From positions 1-56,814 of IMG/VR virus record IMGVR_UViG_3300029319_000057: DNA of 56,814 bases; one strand, given 5' to 3'. This stretch comes from a virus. Its lineage: Duplodnaviria > Caudoviricetes. Shown here in pieces: positions 4,155 to 56,092 of this stretch. A program made the translations under genes and the position numbers. Position 1 is the first letter of the stretch, and every line of letters starts with the position of its first letter. The notes beneath the pieces are model-generated. The model did no database searches, was not told the DNA's origin, and worked only from the letters and a program-made list of their open reading frames with translations.

Positions 4155-4605
4155 CTTCTTCTAATTTATATTCACCAGAGTCTAATAATTCTTCTTTATA
4201 TTGCTCAAAAAATTCTTCATATACATCAGGCCACCAGCTTTCTAGTTCATGATTAAAATCGTATTCCATATCATCCCATAAGCATGGGTCTATCCATACA
4301 TTATTGCCGTGAGTTATTTCTTCAACAGCTTTTACCGACCAGTCATTATAATCTTCATAATAATAACCGTCTTGTGATATATAAGGTTTATCTTCGTGAG
4401 TACACCAAAATATATCATAACCATCAGAGGTCATTTCAGTATATATTTTTAATGTCCATTTGTCATCTATATAATCACTTGTATTATCTAGTTTACCACC
4501 GTATTCTGTTTCGATATACTCTAGTAACCAGTTGGCATCAGGCTCTTCCATAAAGCCATCCATTTCTAATTTTTCTTTGATTATTTCGTCCGTTAAAATT
4601 TCCAT
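4147..4605 (-). CDS. Highly acidic hypothetical protein
   Basis: 152 aa, very D/E-rich with many W/Y. Confidence 0.75.
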   Translation of the reverse strand: MEILTDEIIKEKLEMDGFMEEPDANWLLEYIETEYGGKLDNTSDYIDDKWTLKIYTEMTSDGYDIFWCTHEDKPYISQDGYYYEDYNDWSVKAVEEITHGNNVWIDPCLWDDMEYDFNHELESWWPDVYEEFFEQYKEELLDSGEYKLEEDE

Positions 4606-4626
4606 AATTAATTGATTTTCAGTTAG

Positions 4627-4700
<74 letters not shown>

Positions 4701-4704
4701 ATAT

Positions 4705-5279
4705 TTTAACAGTAAGCATTGCGACTCGGTAACGCTGCACCCGCATTGTCGGCTCAAAGGTTTTAACCATTCAACAACCGGCTTGGTACTTACTGTTATA
4801 TTGTAGGGTGGTATCGTGCACAATACCCACGCTTTCAGGAGTAACGGGATAATTAGCATTAAGCCTTCCCCTTTACTGTCCTTCGTGTTTTAACCCTAAG
4901 GCTTCGCCCACGGTTCGGTTGTATTCAGCGTCTCAGTCGTGCACTATCTTTCAAGCTGCAACTGTTCTTAGCTTACTGTTACCGGGCCTCGGTCCCGCCT
5001 CAGTCTCGGGTCGCTCATAATGCTAGTGGAGGATTACCCTCTATCTTGTACTTGCATTAGCGGTGCGCCTCTGACATTAATATTTTCGGGGGAAGAAACC
5101 CCAGCAGTTTCTTCTCATTACAGGTGATTCACATATCGGCACTTAGTCCCTAATGTGATTTGTCTTGGGAGTCACCAACCCTTAAACGAGCCATTCACTT
5201 ATGTGGTGTAACGGAATTTTACCGTACTTGGTTTGAACTACCGTGCTAAACTTGCACACCCTAATTAAGCTACTCGTCT
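4705..5279 (-). ncRNA. Putative large structured non-coding RNA (~575 nt)
   Basis: GC-rich island with no credible ORF; many visible helices, e.g. 4707-4718/4787-4798, 5092-5099/5107-5114; abuts tRNA 5' end. Confidence 0.65.
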
Positions 5280-5471
5280 CTATTTACGCCGCCATGCTCT
5301 GTGAACACTTGCAGAGACTTCTTGGCTGACGATTTGTATAGTGTTACCCGTCTTGCCGCTGATAATTGGAACGTAACTATATTGTCGTATAGCACTGCAG
5401 GAAACGCAGGTACTATAACCTAAGGCGATACGGCCAGCGGGTATTATATTTGAACATTTACATTTTTTCAT
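5280..5471 (-). CDS. DksA/TraR-like C4 zinc-finger protein
   Basis: CKCSNIIPAGRIALGYSTCVSC resembles the C..C...IP..R......C..C finger. Confidence 0.6.
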   Translation of the reverse strand: MKKCKCSNIIPAGRIALGYSTCVSCSAIRQYSYVPIISGKTGNTIQIVSQEVSASVHRAWRRK

Positions 5472-5476
5472 ACATA

Positions 5477-5509
5477 TATATTATCGAAAATATTTCGTAT
5501 TTAATTTGC
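5477..5509 (-). promoter_or_regulatory. Repeated promoter-like motif, copy 2
   Basis: GCAAA-TTAAATACGA-N9-GATAATATA just upstream of the Zn-finger gene. Confidence 0.7.
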
Positions 5510-7695: not shown

Positions 7696-7998
7696 CTACT
7701 TTACTTCAACTCTTTCTATTACTATGTCTCTTACATTTGAAGGCATTCTAGTACTTTGTGACCAGTAACCTCTTTTCAACCAACAAGGCATTATGTTTAG
7801 TTTAGGTAACATTACTTTTAGTACTTCGTCGTGGTTGTAAGTTACTTTTTCATTTTTGTTATTAACAAAGGTAATGATTTGATTTCTACCGTACCATGAC
7901 TTTCTTACTACAAAGTTTTTTCTTGTGATTGGTGGAAAGATTTCTTTTAACTCTTTCTTACTTAGTTTACTGATTGCTTGATTTAATTTAGTGTTCAT
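7696..7998 (-). CDS. Hypothetical basic protein
   Basis: 100-aa ORF with AT-rich leader. Confidence 0.7.
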   Translation of the reverse strand: MNTKLNQAISKLSKKELKEIFPPITRKNFVVRKSWYGRNQIITFVNNKNEKVTYNHDEVLKVMLPKLNIMPCWLKRGYWSQSTRMPSNVRDIVIERVEVK

Positions 7999-8187
7999 AA
8001 TTTTTAATTTTAATTGTTATTATTTAATTTTATATTTATGTATTATTTTATTTATATCTTTTATATTTGTTAAGTGATAATGACTATGAAATTTTTTATT
8101 ATAATTAATTGTTAAGTCATATAGTTTGAATTCATTTGAATAGTAAATGTTAAATGAGTACATAATTATTTTTTTATTTGTTACACT

Positions 8188-8220
8188 TATATTATCTAAT
8201 TTACTTCGTATTTAGTTTGC
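8188..8220 (-). promoter_or_regulatory. Repeated promoter-like motif, copy 5
   Basis: GCAAA-CTAAATACGA-N9-GATAATATA then AGTGTAAC. Confidence 0.7.
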
Positions 8221-8435
8221 TAAAAAGGTAATATAGTTTTTTCAATATAAGTTAGACCTTTTAGTTTTAGCCAGTGTGATTTACCAGTTTTATATTGGTG
8301 ATTTCCATCTTCATCTTGTCCTAAGTATTTTGTTTTAAAGCCAAATGAGTTAGGAAGATTGCCGACTGTGTAGCCTTGATAGTAAGTGTTATTAACTTTA
8401 ATAACATTGTCTTTTAAGAATTTAATTGTTAACAT
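8220..8435 (-). CDS. Hypothetical protein
   Basis: 71-aa ORF, first gene of leftward block. Confidence 0.65.
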   Translation of the reverse strand: MLTIKFLKDNVIKVNNTYYQGYTVGNLPNSFGFKTKYLGQDEDGNHQYKTGKSHWLKLKGLTYIEKTILPF

Positions 8436-9427: not shown

Positions 9428-10993
9428 ATGGAATATAATAATCCAAGTGAGATAGTAAAGAATCTGTCTTTCGGGGCAGATGCAAGAGACAAAATAATGC
9501 ACGGGGTTGATAAACTAGCAAATGCGGTTAAATCAACCCTAGGTGCTTCCGGAAAATGCGTTATATACGAAGACGCGTTAGGCCGGCCGGTAATTACAAA
9601 AGACGGTGTAACCGTTGCGGAAAGCGTAGTCTTATATGACCCGGTCGAAAACATAGGGGCAACTCTTATAAAGGAAGCAGCTAGAAATACAGTAAAAGAA
9701 GCCGGAGACGGTACAACAACAGCAACAGTGCTTGCGCAGGCATTGTTGCACCTCGCATATGCAAAAATTAAGGATGAGGGTGTGCGTAATATTAAATTAG
9801 GTATATCCTCTGCCCTTGATAAAGTAACTGAGCACTTACAGGAGGAAGCAATTCCCGTCAAGGATGACATGTTAAGATCCGTAAGTGCTATTAGTTGCAA
9901 TAATGATGAGGCTCTGGGAAATATCATATCGCAAGCCTATTCGAAGGTAGGTAAGGATGGTGTCGTCCTTATGGAAGAGTCTGAGACCCATGACACATAC
10001 GTTAAATTCGTAGAGGGCACACGAATAGAAGGCGGACTCAAATCGCCACATTTTATGACAGATAGAGATAAAGGTAGAGCAGTACTAGACAATCCGTACG
10101 TACTAATAGTTACTTCGCCAATACCTAATATCCGTAAAATACAAAGTGTATTGGAGTTTGTTATTAAAAAGAAAAGGAGCTTATTAATCGTTGCAGGCGT
10201 AGAACAACAACCTATGGCAGCTTTATTAGCTAACAAGGTTAAAGGCAATATAAAAGTTAATGTTGTAGATCTGCCTGGATTCGGACCAACTAAGCAAGAT
10301 ACAGTAGAAGATCTTGCGATATTGACTGGAGCAAAAATAATAGACGAAGAACTTGGTGATGATTTAGATTTAATAAATCCAGATGTACTCGGTGAGGCTA
10401 AGCAAGCTATAACCGATAATACACATACAGTTCTTCAAACTATAGATCAAGGTGAAATTTCTAAAGAACGAGTTAAAAAAGTTGAAAAGAAAATAAAAAA
10501 AGAAAAAGACCCGTACTTTAAGAAGAAGCAACAAGAACGTTTAGCTATGCTAAATGGGCAAGTTGCGATGATAAAAGTCGGCGCCGATTCTAAAATTGAG
10601 CTAAAAGAAAAGAAAGATAGAGTTGAAGACGCTATTTATGCAACTAGAGCAGCATTACAAGAAGGAATAGTATCTGGAGGTGGAATTGCATTATTAGATG
10701 CTCATTATAATATACAGCCTGAAAATGAAGGCGAGCGTATTTTATTAGAAGCTATAAAAGCTCCATATAAAACTATTTTAGAAAATGCTAATTTAGAATA
10801 TAAAGAAACAGGTAAACAAGGGACAGGCGTTAATGTTATATCTGGCAAACAAGTTAATATGATTAAATCCGGTATTATTGATCCTGTGCTTGTAACTAAG
10901 ACAGCGTTAAAAAATGCAGTTAGCGTTGTCAATACTATATTTTCTGCAGATTGTGTAATTTCAAATATTAGAATAGACAATGCAAGCAGTTAA
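9428..10993 (+). CDS. groEL: Phage-encoded chaperonin GroEL
   Basis: ITKDGVTVA, AGDGTTTATVLA, PGFG, KDRVEDA, GIIDP motifs; no GGM tail. Confidence 0.97.
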   Translation: MEYNNPSEIVKNLSFGADARDKIMHGVDKLANAVKSTLGASGKCVIYEDALGRPVITKDGVTVAESVVLYDPVENIGATLIKEAARNTVKEAGDGTTTATVLAQALLHLAYAKIKDEGVRNIKLGISSALDKVTEHLQEEAIPVKDDMLRSVSAISCNNDEALGNIISQAYSKVGKDGVVLMEESETHDTYVKFVEGTRIEGGLKSPHFMTDRDKGRAVLDNPYVLIVTSPIPNIRKIQSVLEFVIKKKRSLLIVAGVEQQPMAALLANKVKGNIKVNVVDLPGFGPTKQDTVEDLAILTGAKIIDEELGDDLDLINPDVLGEAKQAITDNTHTVLQTIDQGEISKERVKKVEKKIKKEKDPYFKKKQQERLAMLNGQVAMIKVGADSKIELKEKKDRVEDAIYATRAALQEGIVSGGGIALLDAHYNIQPENEGERILLEAIKAPYKTILENANLEYKETGKQGTGVNVISGKQVNMIKSGIIDPVLVTKTALKNAVSVVNTIFSADCVISNIRIDNASS

Positions 10994-53160: not shown

Positions 53161-54882
53161 TTATCCATCACAAGCTAAACAATTCTCATCCATAGCTTGC
53201 TCAGCAATATCTCCTCTTAATACAGACTCTGTACGAACATAATACAAAGTTTTAATACCTTTTTTCCAAGCTTCTAAATGAACTTTATTAAGCCATTTGG
53301 GTGTAGCTATAGAGGGAAATGCTAAATTTAAACTAACGGATTGGTCAATATATTGTTGACGTATTCCAGCTTGATTAACTAATTCTAGTTGATTTATTTC
53401 TTTAAATGTTTTAAATACTTCTTTAACGGGTACATTATGTTCGCCTATTGTAATTTTATCAAGCTCTTTTATTCCTTGAACTGAACCTCCGTCTTTTAAT
53501 ATTTTATTCCAAATTTTTTCGTTATCTAATTTATATCTTCTTAATATTTTTTTAAGCGTAGGATTTTTTCTTATAAAGGTTCCTTTCGCAGACTGTTCAG
53601 TAAAAATATTAGCGGCCCAAGGCTCAATGCCAGGGCTAACGTTACCGCTAAGCTTACTATTAGACACAGTAGGAGCAATAGCCCTGAGATGCGTGTTACG
53701 CATTCCAGTACCACGGCACCATAACGGTTCACCATATGTTTCAGCCAACGCACGACTCGCTCTTTCACTTTCAATTTTAATTTGCGAAAATATTCTACGA
53801 GTTTCAAACTGTGCGAGTAAACCTTCAAAAGGTAAACCTTTATTTTGTAAATAGGTATGCCAACCAAGAACACCAAGTCCAAGAGCTCTGCCCTTTTCAG
53901 CCGACCTAACAGCGTTTTCAAACCCATACCTATATTTTGCTCTTTGTATAAATTCTTCAAGCACACCATCCAAGAACCAAATAGAGTCGTGTATGATATT
54001 TGTGTTTTTCCATTCTTCATATTTTGCTAAGTTTAATGATGATAAACAACAAACAAAACTATGCGATTCATCTGTATGTAATACTATTTCACTACATATA
54101 TTTGTCATATGAACTTTTAAAGCGTTATCTTTATACGCTGAAGGGTTCTGTTTATTTGTATTTCCTTTAAAAAGTATATAAGGTTCTCCAGTCGCTTTAC
54201 GTTTTTGTAATAGCTTACTCCATTTTTTTCTTGCAACTTTATCGCCAGCTTCAAGCTTTCGCATGAATTTATCACCGACAACAGCGCATTGGTGTAAGTT
54301 AAGTGATTGTCTATTGATGTCTCCTTTAGGTTCTCTAATTTCGAGCCACTCTTCAAAATCATCGTGGTCAATGTTAATATTAACGCTAGCTGCTCCTCTT
54401 CTAACGGATCCTTGATTTGTTGCAAGAATAGTTGAATCGTATATTTTGCAAAAAGGAACCACTCCGTCGCTTGTTCCATTTCCTGTTATTTTTGCGCCAG
54501 CGGGTCTAATCATATTTATTCCGATACCCACTCCACCGCCGTGCTTAGCGAGCAGCATCATTTCTAAATTTTTCTTTCCAATATCCTGTATACTATCAGC
54601 AACATCAATTCCAAAACAACTTATAGGCAAACCTCGATCTATACCTGTATTAGAAAGCACTGGTGAAGCTAAACATAACCAACCCTTCCATATGTATTCA
54701 AAAAAAGTTTCGGCTAATTCTGGGCGATATAAACGCTTCGCAACAGTATTAGATACACGCATATAAGCATCCCGTGGTGATTCGCCATTATATAAATAGC
54801 CACCTGATATTGTTTTTTTATAAACATCTGTATCTCCCCAAGCAGGGTAATCAATTCCTTTTTTCCAATCTTTATTCCACAT
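53161..54882 (-). CDS. nrdA: Ribonucleotide reductase class I alpha subunit (no ATP-cone)
   Basis: PISCF, GGGVG, TNICSEI, APT, KTLYY, C-terminal CLAC; start 54882 via TAATG overlap. Confidence 0.95.
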   Translation of the reverse strand: MWNKDWKKGIDYPAWGDTDVYKKTISGGYLYNGESPRDAYMRVSNTVAKRLYRPELAETFFEYIWKGWLCLASPVLSNTGIDRGLPISCFGIDVADSIQDIGKKNLEMMLLAKHGGGVGIGINMIRPAGAKITGNGTSDGVVPFCKIYDSTILATNQGSVRRGAASVNINIDHDDFEEWLEIREPKGDINRQSLNLHQCAVVGDKFMRKLEAGDKVARKKWSKLLQKRKATGEPYILFKGNTNKQNPSAYKDNALKVHMTNICSEIVLHTDESHSFVCCLSSLNLAKYEEWKNTNIIHDSIWFLDGVLEEFIQRAKYRYGFENAVRSAEKGRALGLGVLGWHTYLQNKGLPFEGLLAQFETRRIFSQIKIESERASRALAETYGEPLWCRGTGMRNTHLRAIAPTVSNSKLSGNVSPGIEPWAANIFTEQSAKGTFIRKNPTLKKILRRYKLDNEKIWNKILKDGGSVQGIKELDKITIGEHNVPVKEVFKTFKEINQLELVNQAGIRQQYIDQSVSLNLAFPSIATPKWLNKVHLEAWKKGIKTLYYVRTESVLRGDIAEQAMDENCLACDG

Positions 54883-55139
54883 TATAAACCTTTTATTAAA
54901 TGATTTGTCCAAGCTATTAAACCATTAAGATTTAACGCAACTAAGTTCCACTGTTTACGCGATGATACCTGTATTATAACGCATATAAAACCTATAATAA
55001 AAAACAAAGGTTCAACAGTCCATTGTCCAGCTATTACAAATCCAGTTCCCATATATCCAACACGAGACGCGAACTTTTGATAGCTTGTTAATTTATTTGT
55101 ATAAGCTAATAACTTAAGTAGTTTTCTTTTTGTTACCAT
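54882..55139 (-). CDS. Small membrane protein between nrdB and nrdA
   Basis: 85 aa with 2-3 hydrophobic segments; overlaps both RNR genes. Confidence 0.65.
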   Translation of the reverse strand: MVTKRKLLKLLAYTNKLTSYQKFASRVGYMGTGFVIAGQWTVEPLFFIIGFICVIIQVSSRKQWNLVALNLNGLIAWTNHLIKGL

Positions 55140-56092
55140 ATATCTTCAAAGTCTTCACCTTCGTTAGCTTTGCTATAATCAGTTGGCCTAATTGCGAAAA
55201 AATCTGTATGAGTGTGACCACCAGTAAGATGATAAAACCAGTTAAGATTATTTGCACAGCCTTCATCATAAGTAAAAACGCCGCTATAACCAAGTTCATT
55301 AAGTTTTTCATTTAATCTTTTCTTTATAAAATGTTTTAAATCATTTGCTTTTAAATTTTCAATATCACCCATTTCAAACATTTTATCAATATATTTCATT
55401 TCAGCATCATGCATTAAACTTGCGGCTTCCAATATATCTTTTTCCGCATCTTTTTTAAGTGTTGGTATTTCTTCACACATATGTCTGAATAATCTACAAC
55501 CCATTTTACTATGTAATGATTCATCTCTTACGGACCACTTCATTTGCTGCCCAATCCCTTTGAGTAGATTGCGTAACTGAAAAGAATATAAAACAGCAAA
55601 AGCACTATATAAGCTAACACCTTCCGCAAATGCAGAAAAGATTGCCAAACTTCTACCAATCCCAACAGGATCATTGCCGTCATAACCAACCAGGTTATCA
55701 AAACGCTCAGCTGTAGCAGGCTCGTGTAAAAATGCCTCAAAATTTTCAAGACCCAGTGTTTCATTTAAATAACTATAAGCTACAGCATGTATTGTTTCTT
55801 GTGAGCCGAACATCATAGCCATCTGCTGTATTTCGTGTTTAGGAAACCATGATACGACTTTTTGTGTCCAATAATCTGACACAGCACATTCAGTTTGCGC
55901 AAAACCTAAAAGGATATTACCAACTAAATGTTTTTCTTCTTTTGTTAATTTTTCATTCCAGTCTTTAACATCACCTGACATTGGTATTTCTGTATGTAAC
56001 CAAAACGCCTGAGCTTGTTTTAACCAACCTTCTGTGTAATACTCAGGGTACTCAAAAGGCTTATAAGGTATTCTTTCTTTAAATAATCCCAT
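55133..56092 (-). CDS. nrdB: Ribonucleotide reductase class I beta subunit
   Basis: FW..TEI, ETIHAVAY, EG...YSAF, RDESLH, DFF....DY. Confidence 0.95.
   Translation of the reverse strand: MGLFKERIPYKPFEYPEYYTEGWLKQAQAFWLHTEIPMSGDVKDWNEKLTKEEKHLVGNILLGFAQTECAVSDYWTQKVVSWFPKHEIQQMAMMFGSQETIHAVAYSYLNETLGLENFEAFLHEPATAERFDNLVGYDGNDPVGIGRSLAIFSAFAEGVSLYSAFAVLYSFQLRNLLKGIGQQMKWSVRDESLHSKMGCRLFRHMCEEIPTLKKDAEKDILEAASLMHDAEMKYIDKMFEMGDIENLKANDLKHFIKKRLNEKLNELGYSGVFTYDEGCANNLNWFYHLTGGHTHTDFFAIRPTDYSKANEGEDFEDIW

Follow-up and report, generated by a model that had tools for sequence, protein, structure and literature searches.

Non-tRNA small RNAs that share a precursor with transfer RNAs (tRNAs) or tRNA-like elements and are freed by tRNA-processing enzymes are known from the tRNA cluster of phage T4 (species 1 and 2) and from murine gammaherpesvirus 68 (the tRNA-linked RNAs). 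To our knowledge, the stable RNAs of T4 have gone without an assigned function for decades, and the same is true of GOLLD and ROOL. GOLLD (RF01998) and ROOL (RF03087) are reported to be phage-borne structured RNAs that often lie beside tRNA genes (bioRxiv 10.1101/2024.12.08.627333). In a wider survey, 8495 structured-RNA candidates of 29-151 nucleotides (nt) are reported from IMG/VR, some of them tRNA-like (Fremin et al. 2023, PMC10690425). A coding-less form of transfer-messenger RNA (tmRNA) from mycobacteriophage DS6A is described as an inhibitor of the host tmRNA when expressed in E. coli (PMC11915505). Here, we analyzed a non-coding stretch of 575 nt on the minus strand (positions 4705-5279) of the 56.8-kb virus record IMGVR_UViG_3300029319_000057, the whole of which (56,814 nt) we call the window. 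The stretch is bordered by the gene of a small zinc-finger protein on its 5' side and by a tRNA-Met on its 3' side. We consider it fairly probable that positions 4701-5281 of the minus strand form a head-to-tail array of about six independently folding RNA modules, which are separated by A/U linkers, end at the initiator-type tRNA-Met, and would be transcribed leftward and processed to small RNAs acting as mimics or decoys.

The array of the window has the order H0[M1]-U-M3-X-core-D3-tRNA (Table 1). A preliminary description of the locus had proposed a large structured non-coding RNA beside a tRNA, either of the GOLLD or ROOL kind or new. The structured, non-coding and tRNA-adjacent nature of the element, its minus-strand orientation and its absence from Rfam 15 were borne out; the single large RNA was not, since relatives carry any subset of the modules. 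In the subfamily of the window we found 19 distinct arrays, with 120-661 nt from H0 to the tRNA and 13 module compositions, among them H0-M1, H0[M1]-U, H0-U-M1, H0-M1-core[M3], H0-U-M3-M5 and H0-M1-M3-X-core. M1 lies inside or after H0, M3 lies inside helix P3 of the core or stands free, and the core is missing in one array (L187) and the sole module after H0 in another (L230). Linkers of (U)AAAAUAU(UA) type connect the modules, and the density of AAAATAT is 4.42 per kb in the arrays versus 0.65 per kb in the loci. In an RNA-library contig and in a metagenome locus (L231) the tRNA is joined straight to the linker that follows U. These comparisons indicate that genomes differ by gain, loss and re-ordering of whole modules, with the linkers as the points of exchange. 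No conserved large core was found among the relatives, and H0 alone is widespread (86 distinct copies). The wider family comprises 90 distinct H0 arrays. Downstream sequence of 1200 nt is available for 65 of these; a T-arm-bearing tRNA-like element follows H0 in 47, a tRNA-Met lies within 1200 nt in 29, and a core is present in 10.

Table 1. Modules, linkers and flanking genes of the array. Positions refer to the window except for the tmRNA-like RNAs, which lie in related loci.
Feature	Positions	Strand	Remarks
tRNA-Met (CAU), initiator-type features	4626..4700	-	ARAGORN; Rfam 66.7 bits
Linker AAAAUAU, tRNA 5' leader	4701..4707	-	read from sequence; also before the tRNA in relatives
D3 module	4707..4798	-	12-base-pair closing helix UAACAGUAAGUA/UGCUUACUGUUA
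Core three-way junction	4806..4896	-	17 of 20 distinct sequences aligned
X module	4898..5001	-	long irregular hairpin closed by GAGGC/GCCUU
M3 scaffold hairpin	5003..5075	-	carries cargo hairpin C1
Linker GAAAAUAUUA between U and M3	5078..5087	-	a variant array joins the tRNA directly here
U module	5088..5181	-	homologues in L187, L060, L217
H0 scaffold hairpin	5184..5281	-	first bases overlap the stop codon of the zinc-finger reading frame
M1 module	5205..5260	-	nested in the tip of H0
63-amino-acid CxC...CxxC protein ending in WRRK	5280..5471	-	stop codon abuts or lies in the base of H0
tmRNA-like RNAs of relatives	L003:3829-3977, L005:4853-4966, L006:3848-3981, L023:7056-7176, L060:9426-9511, L138:4069-4150, L183:2835-2916		

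The evidence for the individual modules is comparative. Related contigs were found with the 152-amino-acid protein encoded downstream, which led to 11 viral contigs. The tRNA-Met is present in 9 of them, and the non-coding stretch before it ranges from 0 to about 840 nt and has only pieces in common with the window. A motif scan for H0 yielded 94 stretches from viral contigs and, together with metagenome loci, the 86 distinct H0 sequences; a scan of metagenome contigs for the 3' end of the subfamily H0 gave 18 loci. For the core, 119 stretches were reduced to 20 distinct true sequences, 17 of which were aligned. The search patterns and filters were degenerate at the covarying positions, so the covariation is not produced by the way in which the sequences were collected.

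H0 in the window consists of helix P1, the internal loop ACGAGUA/GAAUGG, helix P2 GCUUA/UAAGU, a second loop AUUAGG/CACA and the tip. The family was defined by model R1 as P1, loop ACGAGUA/GAAUNG, P2 GSUUA/UAASU, loop AUUAG/ACA and a variable tip. With this model the window gives a single copy at 5183-5285 (63.2 bits, E 5.8e-14) and thus belongs to the family. Among 75 sequences the loops are invariant and P2 occurs as GCUUA/UAAGU (50), GGUUA/UAACU (19) and GCUUA/UAAGC (5), hence a C-G pair is switched to G-C in 19 of the 75; P1 covaries at three positions in a motif-anchored count. In an alignment of 36 sequences 92% of the cells are paired, and the covariation score of 0.447, which none of 500 shuffles reached, compares with 0.151 after shuffling. 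Slid controls scored at most 0.097. In the window two outer pairs of P1 are non-standard and an alternative closing helix of 8 base pairs is possible. The AGACGAGT/GCTCGTTT helix of the preliminary description, which was said to close a multibranched domain, has to be left ambiguous: it is present in the window, but it is invariant in the subfamily and competes with the register of the family.

The core is a three-way junction with P1 GGGU/ACCC, P2 CACG/CGUG, P3 GG-AC-AG.../...CUCC bearing cargo hairpin C2, and P4 GGUAUUG-UGCA-CGAUACC. Its family definition comprises P2 CAMG/CKUG, a P3 with variable insert, the P4 hairpin and the junctions UAAAAC, GAA and AGRAAG. The window is a row of the corresponding alignment (A3) and itself supplies a compensatory A-U at pair 21-147. 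Pairing is kept in 99.2% of the cells, and 7 of 15 pairs show changes on both sides, which none of 500 shuffles equaled. P2 is CACG/CGUG in 14 sequences and CAAG/CUUG in 3, the inserts of P3 range from 6 to 150 nt, and P4, in which the predicted GTGGGTATTG/CGATACCAC helix was recovered, has four covarying pairs, that is, 4 of its 6 pairs change on both sides. The minimum free energy (MFE) structure of the single sequence gives the same fold as the comparative model (z = -2.46). Core P4 and the tip of X share words resembling A(U/A)UGUGCACGA (4814-4824 and 4937-4947).

Compensatory base changes were found in every module. M1 is built from a closing helix GGUGU/ACACC, a conserved AAGUUUAGCA, a variable hairpin and the hairpin ACGG-UAAAAUU-CCGU; 8 of its 14 consensus pairs have compensatory changes among 12 distinct copies, including those of the GGTGT/ACACC and ACGG/CCGT helices seen before. 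The GTGC/GCAC helix proposed alongside them is present in the window sequence but missing from the consensus of the M1 family. In other arrays M1 is not nested but comes as a separate unit behind H0 or U. In U, GGG/CCC closes GGUGA/UCACC, inside which lies the hairpin UCACAU/AUGUGA; next comes the hairpin GAAGAAACU/GGUUUCUUC. Four copies share 28 consensus pairs, 4 of them compensatory, and the GAAGAAAC/GTTTCTTC helix is retained in all four homologues with one A-U to G-U change. M3 has an outer GUC/GAC, a loop, CGC/GCG and the loop ACCGCUA/UAUGA, and then carries C1 (UAAUGC...GAGG-GUAAU-CCUC...GCAUUA); 4 of its 8 consensus pairs are compensatory in 12 copies. The TAATGC/GCATTA helix with its inner GAGG/CCTC therefore turned out to be a cargo hairpin, and it recurs in L002, where it is closed by CUGC/GCAG. 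X could be aligned with the inner part (P2 and tip) of tmRNA-like RNAs from relatives (11 sequences, 15 pairs, 6 compensatory) and has the short GAGGC/GCCUU helix in place of acceptor and T arms. D3 is known from four copies with 21 pairs, 2 of them compensatory, and the window copy has a 27-nt insert; in each of L179, L143 and L155 a tmRNA-like RNA precedes its homologue. The 12-base-pair helix that closes it shows one compensatory and one G-U change among four sequences. The repeat UAACAGUAAG is found in both X and D3 (4789-4798 and 4972-4981). Altogether, the eight helices of the preliminary description were all located, and six of them have comparative support.

The same alignments identify the RNA strand. 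Of 36 H0 sequences, 34 have G-U at pair 16-81, and 12 of the 17 core sequences have U-G at pair 165-172. These G-U pairs, which lie at conserved positions, are compatible with the minus strand only, as had been noticed from the window sequence for several pairs. We could also confirm that 4705-5279 is a GC-rich, structured stretch of the minus strand free of open reading frames (ORFs). The guanine-cytosine (GC) content is 0.47-0.49 over 4651-5250 compared with about 0.27-0.35 in the flanks, and the longest frame has 65 amino acids and reads into the tRNA, all others having at most 41. These scans agree with the GC-rich island without a credible ORF described earlier, which extends from the stop codon of the zinc-finger gene to the tRNA.

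Small hairpins were found repeatedly on scaffolds of different kinds. Eleven cargo motifs were chosen by eye, a biased choice, and all of them occur in at least two contexts or scaffold types. Cargo M2, with its invariant ACGGAAGUGUAU (24 sequences), was found in 25 places if its contexts are added up by scaffold: 10 on H0, 5 on core P3, 4 on tmRNA-like RNA and 6 elsewhere. Likewise, C1 sits on M3 in the window and on M1 in L002, and C2 sits on core P3 in the window and on a tRNA-like element in L201. As judged from these alignments, conserved scaffolds (H0, core, M1, M3 and tmRNA-like RNA) bear interchangeable cargo hairpins at their helix tips. Tentatively, and with some doubt on our side, one might extend this to a scaffold-and-cargo system, in which abundant marine phages swap cargo among tips and string scaffolds together by AAAAUAU in front of an initiator tRNA. 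The tRNA-processing enzymes would then release customizable small RNAs, and the cargo would be the active part, acting as aptamer-like decoys for host translation, RNA-repair or defence factors. If true, the array would be the RNA counterpart of a gene-cassette array.

Relatives of the array carry RNAs that resemble tRNA and tmRNA. Their tmRNA-like RNAs reach 31-42 bits with the Rfam tmRNA model, below the gathering score of 47. They measure about 82-149 nt, too short for pseudoknots and a tag region, and combine a T arm with an acceptor stem containing G3:U70. In the seven listed in Table 1 the sequence that follows is CUA, not CCA, and the middle part holds variable cargo. A second tRNA-like element, called by neither ARAGORN nor Rfam, comes after H0 in most arrays (for example in L179, minus strand, and at L003:2140-2330); in it, an acceptor-like stem ACUAG/CUAGU is succeeded by GUMWGG, cargo, CUACCGACGGGUA and a T arm. 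From its homology to the inner helix of the tmRNA-like RNAs, X appears to derive from such an RNA. Lacking acceptor and T arms, X cannot be charged.

Our proposal of decoys or mimics follows from two points: the same positions in relatives hold tRNA-like and tmRNA-like RNAs, and X seems to derive from one of the latter. The array would be transcribed within the leftward early operon; no signal for a promoter or terminator exceeded chance, and H0 begins at the stop codon of the preceding ORF. RNase P, cutting at the 5' end of the tRNA, would free the 3' end of D3. This release, already suggested in the preliminary description, is plausible given that the last helix ends 7 nt before position 1 of the tRNA. 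Further cuts in the single-stranded linkers could liberate stable small RNAs, and these may mimic or decoy host factors that handle tRNA, tmRNA or ribosomes, possibly together with the small zinc-finger protein encoded just upstream. A decoy function is our best guess by analogy. Short contigs from four RNA libraries of three studies give a weak hint at expression. Two runs of a single study supply contigs of 203 nt and 184 nt that are identical to the window over 4874-5077, a contig of 160 nt covers 5173-5330 with one difference, and the fourth run contains pieces over U, H0 and D3.

Several observations weigh against this interpretation. The MFE of the whole stretch on the minus strand has z = -0.62, and 26 of 100 shuffles fold equally well; on the plus strand z is -1.70. 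The z values of the modules, listed by module, are -1.75, -0.95, +0.27, -0.41, -2.46 and -1.05, the value of -2.46 being that of the core, and four of the six modules have folding energies inside the range of shuffles. The preliminary description had named folding no better than shuffled controls as a reason to give up its proposal, and by thermodynamics alone one would have to do so. The case stands on the comparative data. Here, the closing helix of H0 in the subfamily of the window and P1 of the core are both invariant and offer no covariation evidence, and the sequences are related by descent, so that shuffle controls overstate the significance. The RNA-library contigs show neither ends, strand nor processing, RNA libraries can hold DNA, and the contig breaks at module borders fit shuffling of modules in a population as well as processing of RNA. 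Among 20 ORFs of the early region no RNA-processing or RNA-binding protein family was found. Finally, the decoy idea derives solely from the resemblance of sister modules to tRNA and tmRNA, and the array of the window has no T arm outside the tRNA itself.

The two flanking genes deserve a closer look. The tRNA-Met has an A:A mismatch at 1:72, three G-C pairs at the base of the anticodon stem and A11:U24, which we take to be marks of a bacterial initiator; the label initiator-type is meant in this sense. It is followed by CUA, not CCA. Upstream, a homologue of the 63-amino-acid zinc-finger protein is the ORF preceding H0 in 48 of 75 distinct loci, and another ORF takes this place in 27. In most of the listed cases the stop codon of these CxC..CxxC..WRRK homologues (62-67 amino acids) lies 5-14 nt from the H0 motif. 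The protein family has 1434 related metagenome clusters, none with a Pfam family or name, and its C-terminal WRRK is invariant. Searches of Pfam and of PDB sequences with the 63-amino-acid protein gave no match; the nearest named Atlas cluster is zf-dskA_traR at 0.87, a lead only. By eye the C-terminal half resembled CsrA, a likeness that we rejected after finding no Pfam CsrA match with 26 members at E<=10 and no match among PDB sequences. From its position the protein is a candidate partner of the array.

This proximity suggests a different role, in which the array, above all H0, is a cis-acting or ribonucleoprotein element: the RNA partner or target of the zinc-finger protein, or a leader controlling the tRNA and the downstream early genes. 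The short distance between stop codon and H0 motif in most listed cases, the retention of the ORF in 48 of 75 loci and the size of the protein family speak for it. Yet some other ORF precedes H0 in the remaining 27 loci, and signals for promoters and terminators were not above chance (sigma-70-type promoters and intrinsic terminators, in a scan not tuned to Bacteroidota). We regard this role as unlikely. It is quite unlikely, too, that the stretch is one ornate RNA of about 575 nt with a single global fold, of which the modules are domains and the variation is peripheral. The place beside a phage tRNA is that of GOLLD and ROOL, the modules mostly come in one order (H0, U or M1, M3, X, core, extras), and one relative (L223) has the order of the window for five modules. 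However, there is no Rfam match at E<=10, arrays can be as short as H0-M1-tRNA (120 nt), every module except H0 is dispensable in some array, and H0 itself was not found in the fetched stretches of 10 of 15 related loci. Moreover, each module has its own closing helix, and no pairing between modules was found that survives in relatives.

Two further explanations deny the array a function as RNA. Decayed tRNA and tmRNA genes together with recombination debris, accumulated without function in a hyperplastic tRNA region, would account for an X that looks like a tmRNA-like RNA minus acceptor and T arms, for the highly variable module content and for folding energies close to those of shuffles. Such debris should not keep its helices by compensatory changes in every module, nor loops that do not vary from one genome to the next (H0 loops, 75 sequences; ACGGAAGUGUAU, 24 sequences), and the genome is otherwise gene-dense; we therefore hold decay to be very improbable. 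To elements acting at the level of DNA, that is, mobile cassettes or protein-binding or recombination sites with terminal inverted repeats at AAAATAT targets, we give hardly any chance. It is true that D3 has inverted ends of 12 base pairs and lies between ACAATAT and AAAATAT, that modules come and go exactly at the linkers, and that the phage encodes an ERF-type recombinase. But the strand-specific G-U pairs of H0 and core (34/36 and 12/17) would be A-C mismatches in a hairpin of the other strand, the internal loops are conserved and asymmetric, and identical contigs occur in RNA libraries.

Searches for known families returned the tRNA and little else. With all 4227 models of Rfam 15 at gathering score, the tRNA was the only match in the whole window; at E<=10 on both strands of 4500-5500 three chance-level matches were added, all overlapping the tRNA. 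There was accordingly no match to GOLLD, ROOL, tmRNA, RNase P or an intron in the stretch, as the check laid out in the preliminary description had asked. The covariance models of GOLLD (RF01998) and ROOL (RF03087) matched neither at gathering score in the window nor at E<=10 in 4500-5500. RNase P RNA, group I and II introns, known ribozymes and riboswitches gave no match in Rfam 15, and tmRNA (RF00023) gave none in the window, where the sole T-arm motif lies in the tRNA-Met and the GGGCGYGA acceptor motif is absent. In 12 related loci, Rfam at E<=1-5 returned only tRNA and sub-threshold tmRNA. With blastn against GenBank phages, the tRNA part alone of the region was matched, and H0 with the tRNA-like element found nothing at E<=1. 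Likenesses to RNase P RNA, 5S rRNA and the sarcin-ricin loop that had been noted by eye were dismissed, being short words without Rfam support. RNA antitoxins of type III (ToxI-like), which were considered together with phage mimics of them, consist of tandem near-identical repeats of about 34-45 nt. No tandem repeat scoring at least 30 was detected in 4500-5500, and only two direct repeats of 10-11 nt are present there. A literature search did not find the motif strings, nor was there a description of these elements in the texts consulted on phage tRNA-like or structured RNA.

As far as searched, the family is confined to uncultured marine phage contigs whose structural proteins are distantly like those of Flavobacteriia podophages; those of the window are about 36% identical to proteins of Flavobacterium, Cellulophaga and Maribacter podophages. 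The H0 model R1 gave no match in Maribacter phage Panino and Flavobacterium phage elemoE, two of the 77 records matching the capsid-like protein. In 596 Gb of prokaryote genomes the H0 motif occurred three times, with only one true array, on a 6.7-kb contig of a metagenome-assembled genome of the Ilumatobacteraceae (L217, JABSQH010000086.1). This contig carries H0, a tRNA-like element, a tmRNA-like RNA, U and the core, and is probably a phage contig binned with that genome rather than a bacterial locus. Elsewhere in the window we noted a GroEL-like chaperonin (9428-10993, plus strand; PHROG E 6.5e-137), both ribonucleotide reductase subunits (53161-56092, minus), the ERF-type recombinase (279-827, minus) and a protein with weak matches to sigma-70 regions 2 and 4 (885-1646, minus). 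The GC content falls to 0.16-0.25 at 7800-8400, where the leftward early genes give way to rightward genes beginning at about 8818; this gap may be a divergent promoter or origin region.

An array of this kind is of interest for several reasons. Its parts are small and covarying, and each can be tested alone. The recurrence of the same cargo on different scaffolds points to the seat of function, and, from the tRNA-like and tmRNA-like sister modules, the target would be sought in the translation apparatus. Phages of this group are common in the sea, and the neighboring protein alone forms 1434 clusters, so that the RNAs could be of consequence when marine Flavobacteriia are infected. A further use of the scaffolds may be as natural stable carriers for RNA expression.

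How does the array relate to the systems described before? The RNAs of T4 and gammaherpesvirus 68 come close in their link to tRNAs, and we know of nothing in these systems that corresponds to interchangeable cargo on conserved scaffolds. With GOLLD and ROOL the array shares that it is phage-borne, tRNA-adjacent and several hundred nt long. In contrast to them, it strings together separable modules of 40-100 nt in varying combinations, has no conserved large core and matches neither model. RNAs of the DS6A type are present in the relatives, and X of the window is homologous to their inner helix, but differs in having no acceptor and T arms. The IMG/VR candidates of Fremin et al. (PMC10690425) may include individual modules, for instance H0 or the core; in the passages compared, an array, a scaffold-and-cargo pattern or these motifs are not mentioned. 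We rate the array as a phage tRNA-linked structured RNA and as such of a known kind; what is unusual about it is the combinatorial arrangement of its modules and the cargo that they share.

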